Of a DNA stretch of 64,000 bases, positions 12,994-36,535 are shown in pieces. Origin of the DNA: Glaucostegus cemiculus. Taxonomy: Eukaryota. The position numbers were made by a program, and so were the translations under genes. The notes below the pieces were generated by a model. The model had not been told where the DNA came from. It made no database searches and worked only from the letters and a program-made list of their open reading frames with translations. The stretch's first letter is position 1. Every line of letters begins with the position of its first letter. Location: positions 8,432,001 to 8,496,000 of the forward strand of contig CDPCPM010000026.1 of NCBI GenBank assembly GCA_976551045.1. The letters run 5' to 3'.

Positions 12994-13245
12994 ACATTCC
13001 ACACTCCAAGCCTTGGGGATGAAGAATTTGAGATTCCCCCCATAACCCCCCCACCAGAAACAGAACCCACCCTGGGACTTACAGACATGGTGTCAGCTTT
13101 CCAAGGCCTTAATGATGCATTGCCCTCACAAGAGAATGAATTCGCACCTCACTTTCCCCCACAGAGCCTGGATCTGCCTTCCATCACAATATCCAGGAGT
13201 ATTATGGACCAAGATGGTGGAATGCTCAGCAATGGTTTGACTGTG
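12994..13245 (+). CDS. TOX3: TOX3 internal coding exon (N-terminal acidic/Pro-rich region, [22 protein letters not shown]...SNGLTV)
   Basis: Acceptor ttctctcttCAG ends at 12993; donor GTG|gtgggt at 13246; 252 nt, phase 0/0. [19 protein letters not shown] and [15 protein letters not shown] are TOX-family motifs. Confidence 0.93.
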
Positions 13246-22641: not shown

Positions 22642-22911
22642 GACCTGGGCCAGGCACAAGTTCCCCAGTACCACCATGATCCAAACATGGGGATGAGGTC
22701 TGTTGTTCACATGGCTGATGTTAATCAAGCAGGAATAATGCAACACAATCAGCTGACCACCATTAACCAATCACAGCTGAGTGCCCAGTTGGGGTTGAAT
22801 CTAGGAGGGGGCAACGTGCCACAGAATTCACCTTCACCCCCTGCTAGCAAGTCAGCCACCCCATCTCCTTCCAGCTCCGTAAATGATGATGATGCTGAGG
22901 AATTTAATAGG
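22642..22911 (+). CDS. TOX3: TOX3 coding exon ([10 protein letters not shown]...[20 protein letters not shown]...[17 protein letters not shown]...EFNR)
   Basis: Acceptor ttcttcttccaatatAG ends at 22641; donor AGG|gtaggt at 22912; 270 nt, phase 0/0. [20 protein letters not shown] and [13 protein letters not shown] match recalled TOX3. Confidence 0.95.
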
Positions 22912-23693: not shown

Positions 23694-23921
23694 GTTAGTG
23701 TAGAGAAACGAGCTGCAGTAGATTCGGGTAAAAAGCCCAAGACACCAAAGAAGAAGAAGAAGAAAGATCCCAATGAGCCTCAGAAGCCAGTGTCGGCTTA
23801 TGCTCTATTCTTCAGGGATACACAAGCTGCCATCAAAGGACAAAACCCCAATGCCACTTTTGGAGAAGTTTCCAAAATTGTAGCATCAATGTGGGACAGT
23901 CTAGGAGAGGAACAAAAACAG
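23694..23921 (+). CDS. TOX3: TOX3 coding exon: basic NLS ([17 protein letters not shown]) and N-terminal part of the HMG box
   Basis: Acceptor ctgtttCAG ends at 23693; donor CAG|gtaaat at 23922; 228 nt. [48 protein letters not shown] is the TOX HMG box. Confidence 0.98.
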
Positions 23922-25630: not shown

Positions 25631-25711
25631 GTATACAAGAGAAAAACAGAAGCTGCCAAAAAGGAATATCTAAAAGCTCTTGCTGCCTACCGAGCCAGCC
25701 TTGTTTCAAAG
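25631..25711 (+). CDS. TOX3: TOX3 coding exon: C-terminal helix of the HMG box ([27 protein letters not shown])
   Basis: Not in the ORF track; translated by hand. Acceptor ttttttgaatatAG ends at 25630; donor AAG|gtaatt at 25712; 81 nt, phase 0/0. Confidence 0.97.
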
Positions 25712-28795: not shown

Positions 28796-29566
28796 GCTGC
28801 TGCAGAATCAGCGGAAGCACAGACCATGCGTTCTGTGCAGCAGACTTTGGCATCGACGAGTCTTTCAACTTCCCTTCTTATGAATTCATCACTTTCGCAG
28901 CATGCATCTGTCTCAGTGTCAACCCAGTCCCTGCAACAGACACTGCCAAGGGCAATTGCCCCCAAACCAATGAGATTGCCCCTGCAAGGCAATCAGCTGG
29001 CATCTGTTTCTATCACAGCGAACATGTCAACAAACATTGCCACACCCATGGGAACTTCTATGGGCACCACTATGGTCCCTACTTCACCTTCACCCCAGTT
29101 AAGCCCTCCACTGCAGTCTCAACAACACCAGATGCAGCAGATGCAACAGCATCAATTGCAGCACTTCCAGCAGCATCACATGCAGCAGCAACTGCATCAG
29201 CAAATACAGCATCAGCATCAAATACAACAACACCAAATGCAGCAGCAGCAAATGCACCATCAAATGCAGCAGCAGCAAATTCAGCAGCACATGCAGCAAC
29301 AGTTGCATCAGCAGCTGCAACAGCAGCAGATCCAGCAGCAGTTACAGCAAATGCAGTTACAGCACATGCAGAAACAGCAAATCCAGCAGCTGCAACAGCA
29401 ACACCCACCTCAGCACTCACCACCTCAGCATTCCCCTGTTGCATCACAACCAGTGGTGGCCTCACAGATCACTTCTCCTCTTCCCACACGGTCAAGTCCA
29501 CAACCAGTCCAGCAACAACAGCAACCTCCACTACAAACCCAGGCCCAGACCCAAGTATTGCCACAG
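28796..29566 (+). CDS. TOX3: TOX3 large exon with polyQ/His-rich region ([20 protein letters not shown]...QTQVLPQ); reads through to TAA at 29581 if unspliced
   Basis: Acceptor ttgttctctttaCAG ends at 28795; phase-0 donor CAG|gtcagt at 29567. [20 protein letters not shown], RxIAPKP and the Q-rich tract identify TOX3 rather than TOX, TOX2 or TOX4. Confidence 0.96.
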
Positions 29567-29716
29567 GTCAGTAAGTATTAAAAATGGAAAATTCCCAGTG
29601 AATCAGGTTGATATGCCATTGTATACTGACATGACTCGTGTTTCTAAAATGGGAATTGAGTGGTATTTCATAAATTGATGAATCCATTGTAATAATGACC
29701 TCCAACTGTTTGTTAT

Positions 29717-29959
29717 AATAAAAATATACTTCAGGATCTTCTTTGACTTGTGATAAACTGATCACAACATGGCTTTTTAGGAATGAATTATGCACCCATT
29801 AAGTTTATTGTTCATTATAATGTGAAGCTGAGCATCTTAGCTCCGTTCTGTACTATGTATAAAATACATTTTATACAGCAACACATATTACATACTTTGA
29901 AGAAAATGTAAAACAAGAAAAATAACATTGTTTAAATAAAAGTTATACTAGTAAATAAA
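29717..29959 (+). promoter_or_regulatory. Cluster of AATAAA hexamers (29717, 29935, 29954); possible intronic polyadenylation for a short isoform
   Basis: Three canonical hexamers within 400 nt of the read-through stop at 29581. The AT-rich background makes chance occurrence possible. Confidence 0.35.
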
Positions 29960-30798: not shown

Positions 30799-33684
30799 GT
30801 AAGTTTTTATTTTGATTGTCCTCCCCACATACTATCAACAAGACATTTTAGTGTGACATTCTGCTTCCCAGATACAAAACTAGCTCTTGTAAATGCATAA
30901 TGCATATAGGAATACTAATAAGAATCTAAGATAATGTATTTAGGAAATAACATTCATTGAATTGGACCGTGTTCTAAATAGATGCAGTAGTAAAAGATCT
31001 TATCAGTTGTCTAATCATTCACCAGTAAATGAATTTGTAATTTGTATTAATAGCATTGAGAAAAAAGTACTGAGCACCTTTGTGTATCCTGCCTGCACAC
31101 AGATGGGATTAGCAGTTCACATTATTTCATTTCTCATCCAAGTGCTTCAGAAATGAGGCTGCCATCGTAATGTTCTCTAGAACAGCATGGCTGCCGTCCC
31201 CAGCTGTCTCTAGTGATTAATTACAGCATCTGTCCTGTCAGAAGCTATAGTGGAGAAGTCTGGTTAAAATTGCAAATTAGCACTGGCAACAACCTTAAAC
31301 TGCTGATGATAAAATGAAAATTAAAAACAGCAAGTGTCATGCATGACTGGAATCCCAATACACACTGGGGTACATGCTAGACTATGTGTCCACAGCTACC
31401 AGCTATTAGATGTAAACAGAAATTAAAATAATAAGCAGTCACAAAATAGCAGGTATTGTGTTGAGGCTGAACTACACTTACGTTGATAAGGAACATGCAT
31501 TTCTCCTTTACTGTGCAACTGTTCAGCATTTTGATCCCTGTATACAAATATTTAATGGTGTAGTGGTGTATATCTGATTAAATTCTTAAATCCATTGCTC
31601 AGAATAAATTAGATGGGAAGAAAAGAAAGCTTTGTGTGGGGAAATTATCTCCTCCAATTAACATTTCATCTGCTATCAGAAAATTAATATGAATTAGGCA
31701 TCGAGATAATTCAGTGCAAATCAGCTTTTATATTTTATTGTCAGGTATAATTACATTTTTACTTCTGACAAAAGAGTAATATGAATCATATTTTAATTTA
31801 TGTTTATTTTTGGCTATTTCAGACATTAAAGTTTGCATGACTCATTCTGCCCTAGGGAAATTAGCTGCCTCCAATGTAAAATTATGATGTGATATCTCAC
31901 TTGCATGAACAGAATTTTTCTGTCCCTTCATTGCCTATTCATGGCACAAATATTTAACATGTCAATAATGTACAATCACAGAAAAATAAGGAGTTTACAA
32001 ATTTTAACAGTAAGGTTTAAATAATTTTATTTGTTTTCATCTAACGCGGCAAGATTACACACAGGGATCTTTACCATTCTGGTAGAGAGCTGTATCATTA
32101 TTCCCATTAAACAGCTTTGCATTAGTTGAATGAACACAAAGTTTTAATTATAGTTGGCACTAGGTCATTAATCACTAACTTAGAGTACAACAATCCTGGT
32201 GACTGTATACAGCATAATTTCAGTCAGCCATTATCACCTGACCCATTGATGTTTGCAGTATTATGAAACAGATGGATTAAATATCTCAGGTTTAACCAGT
32301 GTCTTCTGCCTTGCTCTATTGAATAGTCTTTAAGCATTTGAAAAGATTCTTTCTATTACCCACTTCATGGAGTAGTTTGCAGTACTGGACTTGAGTATAA
32401 CCTTCCTTGCCCCTTTGTTTGGCTTTTGTTTTGTAACAGCTGTTATCATCGTTTTTGGTCAGCTGTGATTGCTGGAGGGAAAATAGGACCAGATGGTGTT
32501 TTGCTATGCATGAATGGAGTGTTAGAGTAGTTTGGACTGAATAGGCCACGATTGAATGGTGTCTGTTCACCACCTGCCCCCTTAGCAGGCAGTACTTGGA
32601 TCAGAGTAGCATGATCTGTCTTGGACTTAGTAGATTTGGATGGGAAAATATAAGAGAACTTTGTTGGATTTAGCTCATATTTATTGATCTGCTGTGAGGG
32701 CAGCAACATTTTGCAGTACACAGTCAATTTGATTTAATTGGATATGACACCCCATGTACATGTAATCTATCATTGTTTTCTTTCAATACAGTTTATCTGT
32801 TTGTTTCCATGGAAACATGGAATTGTCGTATAGTATCAGATAAAGGAAGGAAGGAGGCAGGAGAATGTTTCAGTGTGTGTTTTTCCTTTTGTTCATTCTT
32901 TTGTAATTACGTTGCGTGTAACAAAGGTGCAAATCTTCAAAAAGTGCCTCCACCCAGTTTTCTGGTGCAGGCACCAGTCTTGAAATGCTAAGATGCAAAG
33001 GCAGTACTTGAACCATGTATTGTTGTCCCAATTAATTTCAAAGATTAAAGCGTGCAAAATGGTGTTTTTACTCATTTTTAATTTGAATAGTAATTACTAA
33101 TTATTGTGCAGACTTTACAAGGACAAGCTCTCTGAATATAATGCTTATTTGTGGCTAAAATGACCCTCCTTTTGTTGTGGAGTGCTTTGCCTATCTAATT
33201 TGTATGCAATCCTTGCTGGTCCTTGTCTGTTGGAAGCCAAAGTATAGTTTTCTTCATTCCTGTATCTACAGGTCACTCACTCCTTTGAAAAGAATGATTG
33301 TGAGTTTTGTTACCATGTATAAAGTTTAGTGCTTGACCTTCGACAGAATTCAGGGGCAAGATTGGGTATTTTCTTTATTCTCGTCTGTTGTGCACTCTCT
33401 GTATTTAGCATGAGGCTACAGCAAATATGCAGCTTCACACTCAGTATATGAAGGAAAGCTATTAAGACTGAAACCACATTATAGAGACCCCCAGTTATTC
33501 ATTACAAGGAGCATTGGTATCATTATTCCTTGCCGACTGTTGATACTACATTTACATCTTGTTTGGGCACCACAGAGATAGAAAATTTCGCCGACTCTTT
33601 ACCCTCCACTTCAGAACCATTTAAACATTGGATTAATTAGAGGAAAAAAAATTACCTATTTAAATAGTTTTTAACTACTTCCAG

Positions 33685-33860
33685 ACCTTTTCACCACCTC
33701 CGCCTGAAGTCCAGCCTATCATCAGCTCTCCCCCACCAACTCCTGTGGGTACTACCACTCCAATACGATGCATGAGGACTGGCTGCACAAATCCACCAAT
33801 CCAGAGCGTGGAGTGGGATAATGAATACTGTAGCAGCGAGTGTGTAGTTAACCACTGCAG
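33685..33860 (+). CDS. TOX3: Penultimate TOX3 exon: Pro-rich linker and Cys-rich motif ([58 protein letters not shown])
   Basis: Acceptor ttaactacttcCAG ends at 33684; donor CAG|gtaaca at 33861; 176 nt open frame, phase 0/2. Peptide resembles the recalled TOX4 C-terminus ([10 protein letters not shown]...[15 protein letters not shown]). Confidence 0.9.
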
Positions 33861-35396
33861 GTAACATTTCACATATACCTGTTTTATCAGATTAGTTACA
33901 ATATCTAAATGAAAATGTATTTTTCAAGACACACTATATAAAAAAAAGTTAGTGTGCAAGCAGTATGCACAAATGAAATCAAAATCTCAACACACCAGTA
34001 TCTGCAGTGGTAGACATTTAAATGGATATATCAAGTGCATGCCCATTTGTGGCTGGAAACAAGAATTAGGCAACACTCCTAATGTTGCTTTATATATGAC
34101 AATACATACCTTCTCTGTATATCCATTTTCATTATGCAAAACTTGATCTCAGCCATCAATCCTTGTCAGTTAGCAGAAATCAAATAGTGATTAACCCATC
34201 AAGTGTACTAATGTAGTGGAAGATGAATCTTCTGATTGTAATACTAATATTCTTAGTTGATGGACCATAGATCATTGCGGTTAAACATTACTACACTGAT
34301 AGAAATCCTGAAACAGAGGCAGTTTGGAACTGATGGTAAATACTGTAACTATTCACAAATGTAAACTGTGTGGCATATGTTACGAAGTACTGACCTATCT
34401 ATAAAGTTTTCAAGATGTTAAGGATATGTTCATTATCCAATACACTAATATATTTACTATATTATTTTACATTCTTTTGAAGCACTGTAGATGAAAATGA
34501 ATCTAAAAGTCTCTTATTCTGTTTTGGTGTTAATATTACTACCAGTTATTACAACACTAAGCTTTTTAATTGTTTTTTTATTGTAGTTCTGAATAAAATG
34601 ATATAAATTAATTCTGTTTTCAAGTGGCATAGATGAAACCGTGAAACATGCATACTTAAAAAAATCATGAAGTGCTGATATTTTCCTATTCCTAACCCAT
34701 GGAAAAAGTGATAGGCTTGCCAGTGGCACATTCCTTCTTGTCAGTGATAAAGTGTGAGATGTGGAAACAACAAACAGAAATAAAAATATAGCTGGATATC
34801 ATTATTTGCTGTTGCTAACATTGCTATCATACACATTGTGATGCTCTGTGAACAGTGACTTGCACCTAAAGTGTGAATGTAATTTGAAAAATTACTAATG
34901 GTGTTTATGGTGCAAATCTTGTATTACCATTCCTGGTTGGACCACACCTGCCAGTTAAAATATCAATGAGTGAATGGGGGAATGAAAAACTGCAGAGCAT
35001 TCAGCTGAAATGAATATCTTTCTGTTACTACTTCCAGTTACAAATATTTCACCTGCAGATCTGAAATTCTAAGATGGGTGATGCCATTGCGATGAGACGG
35101 AAAGGCTAATCTGTCATTGTGTACCTTATTTATTGCTTTTTGTCTGAAACATTTCTTAAAAGCACCATTTAAATAAAATACATAATAATCTGATAAAAAC
35201 TAAGATGTATTTTGTTACTAAAAATCTAATCTCAAGCCTTTGTTCAAATGTCATATTCATTCTATTGTCCAGATTGGGAGAGAAAATCTGGAGTTCAGTT
35301 ATCTACCTGGCATTTTACAGTGCTGAAAATGTGTATCTAATTTTGCTTCGGTTTAAATCTAATAGCAGTAAGGTTAAACTCTTGTGTCTTCTGTAG

Positions 35397-35457
35397 GGAT
35401 ATCTTCATGGCGTGGGTTGCCTCTCGTAATCAGAGCTATACTGCTTCGGTGAAGTGA
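35397..35457 (+). CDS. TOX3: Terminal TOX3 coding exon ((R)[19 protein letters not shown])
   Basis: Acceptor cttgtgtcttctgTAG ends at 35396. It completes the phase-2 Arg codon (AG|G); TGA at 35455-35457. Resembles the recalled TOX4 end [20 protein letters not shown]. Confidence 0.9.
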
Positions 35458-36535
35458 AGATTTGCCATCAACATTTTTGAGCCAAAACTCGGCATTTATC
35501 AGACAGACTGCCAAGAAGATGTTCTGAAAGGCAGCCTGACGTGCTTTGTTTCCTTGTAGCTACATGGGCACAGACTTCAGAAGGCTTTCCAGTGACAGGC
35601 TATACAGACTTTCTTTAGGCCCACCTGCCATTTCTGCCAGTGCCTGGAGAGCTGGCCATTTTACATTGTGTAATGTAGCTTCAGATGATTATTTTGTTTG
35701 ACATGAACTTAAAGGGCATGGCTTTTAGTAAATGACATGCCTCTGCATGATTGCTGAAGACTGTGAGAAGACTCAGATGGAAAAACTTCTTTTGTGACAG
35801 TGATGTCATTGTGACCAGTCAAGACATAAAGTACTGAGTGAAGCATAATACTTAAGTGGAATGCTAACTACTTTTTTTTTAACAATAGCTCTATCACTTT
35901 CTAATGGCTTAAAGGGGAAATTAGATTTTTGTTCAGAAATTCTTTCCATTTTACCTATTGTACACAATGATCAAGTTTAAGAACATTGGTTTCTCACAGA
36001 TGTAATTATTTTCTAAGTTCTTAAGAAACCAGGTTCATCATGTAATCGAGCAATCATGTGGTATCCATGTAAGATCTTTTTCATTATTAGTTTCTATTTC
36101 TGCAACCAAAAAGCATTATTTTGATATGTACTGTATTGTAGGAATTGCTTTTTGTATGGCAATTTCTTAGCATAGTCTGCTCAATTGAACTGTGGCTCCT
36201 CTAAAGAAGAGTTCTGTGCATAAGGCCAAATGCTTTAAAAAAGCTCCTCTTTAATGCAGTAGTCAAGTTAGGAATGGCTAGAGAAAAAAAGCCCATAAAC
36301 CAAAATCAATAATGTTTAATATTTTTACTTCTGTTTGTATTTAAATTTTTTGTATTAAAATGTGTTCTTATTTAAGGTTTAATTATTGAGAAACAATAGC
36401 TGATGTATTAATGATTGACCTTGCAGTGAAACATGTGTTTCTTCATTCAGAAACAAAAGTTTTCTTTCTCTATTGTAACTGATCTTTAATTTCCTTATTT
36501 TGGCTCTAATAAAAAGAGACATGAAAATACTTCAG
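35458..36535 (+). other. TOX3: Probable 3' UTR of the long TOX3 isoform
   Basis: AU-rich stretch with no recognised repeat, running from the stop codon to AATAAA at 36508; the 3' end is estimated. Confidence 0.55.
36508..36513 (+). promoter_or_regulatory. Candidate polyadenylation signal AATAAA (long isoform)
   Basis: Canonical hexamer about 1.05 kb after the stop, preceded by U-rich sequence; ATTAAA also at 36354. Confidence 0.55.

Follow-up and report, generated by a model that had tools for sequence, protein, structure and literature searches.

The closest described system is the C-terminal domain of TOX4, known from human and Drosophila as part of the PTW:PP1 complex (PDB 9CI7; PMC12278311). 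Residues 571-621 of TOX4 bind the N-terminal domain of PNUTS at 0.3 nM through 13 named residues, and the zinc ligands are C572, C577, C592, and C596 (PMC12278311). According to the same paper, the binding is constitutive, the interaction is conserved from fly to mammal, and the nuclear accumulation of TOX4 in fly cells requires PNUTS. The PNUTS surface is described there as "so far exclusively used by Tox4", and neither TOX3 nor TOX2 appears in the main text. The C-terminal segment of TOX4 is also needed for KU80 association (PMC12166427), and a further paper describes the TOX paralogues as divergent in their C-termini, with PP1 regulation as a function of TOX4 (PMC13710973). In bony vertebrates, TOX3 has been described as an Atoh1 coactivator, and Tox3 orthologues were noted in catshark (PMC13012119). 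The words "C-terminal" and "TOX4" do not occur in the main text of that paper, and the alignment in its SI Fig. S7 may show the tail described below.

I analysed a 64,000-nt stretch of the ray Glaucostegus cemiculus (contig CDPCPM010000026.1, positions 8,432,001 to 8,496,000), hereafter the window. It carries the coding exons of a TOX3 gene on the plus strand. These are an internal exon with the conserved N-terminal block (12994..13245, 92% to Hypanus TOX3), the exon preceding the HMG box (22642..22911, by homology to TOX3), an exon with a Lys-rich stretch and the first part of the HMG box (23694..23921, Pfam PF00505 in the orthologue), an 81-nt exon with the end of the HMG box (25631..25711, by homology to TOX3), and the TOX3-specific polyQ exon (28796..29566), which ends at the phase-0 donor CAG/gtcagt. 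Searching the 64-kb window did not reveal the first two coding exons, which presumably lie upstream of it. Behind the polyQ exon there are two more exons, both seen in contigs and both matched by PDB 9CI7. Cassette exon A (33685..33860; 176 nt, acceptor ttccag, donor AG/gtaaca, phase 0/2) encodes a Pro-rich linker and, as predicted from the TOX4 domain, a four-Cys zinc loop and the first part of the helix that binds PNUTS. The last coding exon B (35397..35457; acceptor ctgtag, phase 2) encodes the remainder of the predicted helix, with the F, W, V, R, and N interface positions, and the stop codon TGA at 35455-35457. The 3′ UTR starts at 35458 and was followed in contigs of all four runs up to 35700, the end of the compared stretch.

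The first-pass annotation had read these two exons as an addition of 78 amino acid residues after the polyQ exon, with canonical, phase-compatible splice sites and the Cys spacing C-x4-C-x14-C-x3-C-x4-C. The acceptors, donors, and phases agree with this reading, and the translation of the joined polyQ exon, exon A, and exon B gives exactly this tail. The Cys motif occurs once in the six frames of the window and in none of 100 mononucleotide shuffles. A second GT donor with a better consensus (GTAAGT) lies 4 nt past the used one (window 29567-29576); its use would put exon A in the wrong frame and lead to a stop 7 codons on, and no contig uses it.

Is the gene TOX3 or TOX4? The start of the polyQ exon gave 235 protein matches; the best among the 120 listed are shark and ray TOX3 sequences at 85-95% (Hypanus sabinus 95%), and none of these 120 is named TOX, TOX2, or TOX4. 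In addition, a TOX-type HMG box is followed by the TOX3-specific polyQ exon. A tree of 34 rows was built from the N-terminus and the HMG box, with the tail and the polyQ region left out. The gene nests with Hypanus and Amblyraja TOX3 at 98/97, and the TOX4 clade (100/99), which includes a ray TOX4, excludes it; TOX3 overall is poorly resolved in this tree, and 22% of bootstrap trees set it apart on one side of a branch. Some 0.6 Mb off on the same contig is a gene with two BRK matches, and a BRK-domain gene occurs within 0.6-0.8 Mb of each of the three TOX loci found in the assembly. I take these neighbours to fit the TOX-CHD paralogon; the neighbour of TOX3 would then be CHD9. By homology and tree the gene is assigned to TOX3, as it had been in the first pass, and the presumed paralogon fits.

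Splicing was checked by comparing positions 33600-35700 with contigs of 4 of the 24 listed runs, which come from four related organisms and four studies. None of the runs containing exon A is recorded as RNA, and RNA status was guessed for 14; the four runs compared do not come from this individual. The joint 33860>35397, which removes a 1536-nt intron with GT..AG ends, was found in three of the four runs. The joint 29566>33685 was found in two of the four, where the 27 nt hanging loose ahead of exon A are identical to window 29537-29563. Both joints had been predicted, and both occur on one 233-nt contig of run X2. The short sides of the joints are 27-29 nt in length, slightly below the 31-nt threshold for a bridging record. 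In a contig of run X3, the polyQ exon is joined straight to exon B and the Cys exon is skipped. Thus, the polyQ exon is spliced either to exons A and B or directly to exon B. The contig depths in X3 are 34 for skipping and 8 for inclusion, and are not usable as isoform ratios. Searched against the genome, exon A had no copy besides those of the two paralogues described below, and a retrocopy is thus an unlikely source of the joints. The contig evidence for splicing is good but not final, because the sides of the joints are short and the runs come from other individuals.

Two tail-less ends were obtained by translation. Skipping of exon A puts exon B in another frame, with 10 residues and then a stop in the last exon, while read-through of the donor at 29566 gives QVSKY and a stop; AATAAA sites lie past this donor at 29717, 29935, and 29954. 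The description of the terminal exons in the first pass holds for the tailed form and had missed these two. It was also observed that contigs of X2 and X3 continue from exon A into the next intron (window 33861-34168). Retention of this intron would lead to a stop just past the fifth Cys and an Arg and would remove most of the predicted PNUTS-binding helix. These contigs could be pre-mRNA or DNA.

How closely does the tail resemble the TOX4 domain? With exon A alone, the sole PDB match at E<=1 was chain B of 9CI7, the human TOX4 (E 1.6e-12), and the full Hypanus orthologue gave an ungapped 49-residue alignment with 9CI7 (E 3e-20). The window tail, also aligned without gaps, has all four zinc Cys of human TOX4 with the same spacing, in a protein of the same HMG-box family, and 10 of the 13 PNUTS-interface residues are identical. 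Of the three changes, D586E and V604I are conservative and K585V is not. In human TOX4, K585 makes polar and cation-pi contacts; the position is occupied by Val in the window tail. Among four named TOX4 proteins, 7-12 of the 13 interface residues are conserved, and position 585 is changed in three of these proteins as well. Unlike the TOX4 domain, the TOX3 tail lies behind a polyQ region and on a skippable exon. Its 43-residue core is identical at 43/43 positions to those of the basking shark and both Mobula species, at 39/43 to that of the chimaera, and at 36/43 to that of the skate; the conservation to basking shark and chimaera points to purifying selection. No Pfam model matches the tail. 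The structure match and the four Cys support its identification as a TOX4-type C-terminal zinc/PNUTS-binding domain, in line with the earlier proposal. The proposal of a putative zinc-binding Cys motif fits the first four Cys, which match the TOX4 ligands; the fifth Cys is no zinc ligand in the TOX4 structure, whose crystallised construct carries Ser at this position (PMC12278311). Because the tail closely matches the PNUTS-binding tail of TOX4, the shark and ray TOX3 likely binds PNUTS, and its zinc binding is predicted.

Is the tail common in the TOX3 of other vertebrates? The cartilaginous-fish TOX3 models listed are 40 from 16 species, covering 15 of the 19 and 15 of the 24 members of two large clusters. 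The tail is present in 18 of them, the skip end in 13, the read-through end in 8, and another end in 1. In these automatic models, at least 10 of the 16 species have the tail, Callorhinchus included. The bony-vertebrate TOX3 is an orthologue with the same N-terminal block, HMG box, and polyQ exon. Unlike the ray gene, it stops where the donor lies, with the end QVSIF. Among the matches listed, the tail is found in 0 of 112 bony-vertebrate TOX3 rows (two of them unnamed) and a QVSIF-type end in 99; this is a count of protein models, with 120 of the 235 matches listed and no full-length teleost or bichir row among them. The other 13 rows have partial or unrelated short ends, seven of which are a mammalian alternative end. 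Gar, sturgeon, paddlefish, coelacanth, and lungfish models end in QVSIF, and amphibian, reptile, and bird models likewise lack the tail. The human protein (NP_001139660.1) also ends in QVSIF, just as the first-pass annotation had stated. Its idea of a loss in the mammalian lineage fails on these models, and since the tail is absent from all 112 rows, the loss is placed at the base of the bony vertebrates. It had also allowed that the tail might already be annotated across non-mammalian TOX3, which is so for RefSeq/UniRef models of sharks, rays, and a chimaera and not for the other non-mammals. The QVSIF end apparently results from read-through of the same splice donor. In some mammalian and bird TOX3 models, splicing from the donor at Q/VSIF leads to short, unrelated-looking last exons (rows P0035, P0036, P0063, P0077, P0087, P0097, and P0100; also P0009, P0069, and P0038).

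In an HMMER search, 77 of 147 new representatives have the four-Cys tail. They include models of hagfish, lamprey, and acorn worm, the TOX4 of lungfish, paddlefish, and bird, and a TOX4-like protein of the electric ray Narcine. Searches of a word index with just the tail as query gave two shark/ray TOX3 clusters only (2 of 6 and 2 of 2 candidates) and are uninformative on the distribution, because they missed TOX4 too.

The other two TOX loci of the assembly group with TOX2 (contig C652, 100/99) and with the TOX/TOX2 group (contig C7, 95/89). Both have a homologous penultimate exon with phases 0/2 and a WD-x-x-YC-like core, and in TOX, TOX2, and TOX3 alike the upstream donor reads Q-V-S if run through. 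The TOX2 exon (G000:C652:159393-159532, minus strand) lacks the first two zinc Cys, while the other two and the first part of the helix are almost intact; it may represent an intermediate decay stage of the same domain. The TOX exon (G000:C7:17677820-17677965) keeps three zinc Cys and lacks the fourth and the helix. Neither protein is predicted to form the domain, since the zinc site is incomplete and the last exon is a different one (RDK-x-LYLT). The hagfish, lamprey, and acorn worm models, together with the same-phase exon in TOX and TOX2, support an ancestral, pre-vertebrate origin of the tail, as had been suggested. The simplest history, inferred by parsimony from protein models, is a single loss from TOX3, likely in the stem of the bony vertebrates.

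Other readings of these data were weighed. The tail might have been grafted from TOX4 onto the cartilaginous-fish TOX3 by exon shuffling or gene conversion, with the bony-vertebrate TOX3 as the ancestral state. A tree of the tail alone, with 51 columns and little resolution, leaves room for an old conversion; even so, the TOX3 tails form their own group in it (SH-aLRT 92), and the core of the window tail is only 30/43 identical to that of the electric-ray TOX4. The homologous same-phase exon in TOX and TOX2 and the tailed TOX genes of cyclostomes also speak against grafting, which I regard as very unlikely. Even less probable is that TOX3 keeps the tail as the sole PNUTS-binding TOX because cartilaginous fish lost TOX4. 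None of the three TOX loci found in this assembly is TOX4, yet the TOX4 of Narcine bancroftii carries an intact tail and falls in the TOX4 clade at 100/99. A loss of TOX4 in cartilaginous fish as a group was thus rejected, and TOX3 is not a substitute for it. In the ray analysed here, a 40.6-kb contig (G000:C1325) with 63% GC, full of simple repeats, carries the fourth CHD-type gene. METTL3 and SPT16, which I take to be neighbours of TOX4, were not found in the assembly, the SPT16 search having had no match in controls either. The small GC-rich contig and the two missing neighbours suggest that the missing TOX4 is an assembly gap in a poorly assembled region. The search for METTL3 also brought up an MT-A70 gene (G000:C73:5251097-5254621), presumably METTL4, with one 423-aa open frame and no intron through the domain; it is possibly a retrogene. 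Least credible of all is that the gene is a mislabelled TOX4 or that the exons lie outside the transcript. The tail is TOX4-like, and the donor context that scores best where the polyQ exon ends does not keep the frame of exon A; against this stand the polyQ-exon matches, the tree, and the single contig with both joints.

A reading that deserves more weight, though it is still unlikely, accepts the tail as real, expressed, and zinc-binding and holds that the partner of TOX3 is not PNUTS, or that the binding is too weak to matter beside TOX4. Compared with human TOX4, three of the 13 interface positions are changed, one of them non-conservatively, and at least one ray has a tailed TOX4. Human TOX4, which binds at 0.3 nM and constitutively (PMC12278311), could saturate the PNUTS site. 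In contrast, the residues kept in the TOX3 tail are those facing PNUTS, distant TOX4 and TOX tails are equally variable, and the reported conservation of the interaction from fly to mammal argues for PNUTS as the partner. PNUTS was not found among the 13 PF08711 matches in the assembly, of which the three weakest were not translated. A human PPP1R10/TOX3/WDR82 complex has been listed from a proteomics set, in a source whose available text never mentions TOX4 (PMC3494656). This listing speaks against the tail being strictly required; my guess is that it may instead have arisen from peptides shared between TOX3 and TOX4.

Much of this is already known in its parts. The tail sequence is present in public automatic models of cartilaginous-fish TOX3 (XP_059848843.1 of Hypanus, XP_078399090.1 of Cetorhinus, XP_032892235.1 of Amblyraja, and XP_007887638.1 of Callorhinchus), which show the same gene, tail, and three C-terminal isoforms. 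The ray gene does not differ substantively from them, and their tail carries no domain label. The domain and the complex are known as well, and no new class of mechanism is involved. In full-text literature searches, which covered few subscription papers, no paper describing a tailed TOX3 was found, and it has apparently gone unremarked.

I consider it quite probable that this gene is a cartilaginous-fish TOX3 in which the two terminal exons code for an intact TOX4-type tail, with predicted zinc binding and likely binding to the N-terminal domain of PNUTS, and that alternative splicing yields tailed and tail-less forms. The polyQ exon is followed by exons A and B or by exon B directly; the read-through end is possible in the sequence and occurs in database models. 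By analogy with 9CI7, the first four Cys would hold one zinc ion, and the helix after them would pack on helices 1 and 3 of PNUTS. The long isoform may then enter the PNUTS-WDR82-PP1 complex at the site of TOX4 and link TOX3-bound chromatin to the dephosphorylation of Pol II, while the short isoforms would work without PNUTS.

By parsimony, the tail would be the pre-vertebrate state of a single TOX gene. After the duplications, TOX4 would have kept it, and it would have decayed in TOX and TOX2. The cartilaginous-fish TOX3 would have kept it as an optional end, and in the stem of the bony vertebrates, where TOX3 lost it, the existing read-through end would have been fixed as the QVSIF known from human. 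One ancestral tail may thus account for all four paralogues. A bolder view is offered tentatively, as I hold it to be somewhat doubtful. The cartilaginous-fish TOX3 might be a second, splice-switchable PNUTS-PP1 adaptor that competes with TOX4 and brings the phosphatase to neural targets. Bony vertebrates might have fixed the "off" isoform; the last five residues of human TOX3 would be a fossil splice donor, and its phosphatase-free coactivator role would come from a locked splice choice. TOX3 is relevant to cerebellar progenitors and breast cancer risk. The long and short isoforms of sharks would offer a natural experiment on whether a TOX coactivator becomes a pausing/termination factor when it recruits PP1.
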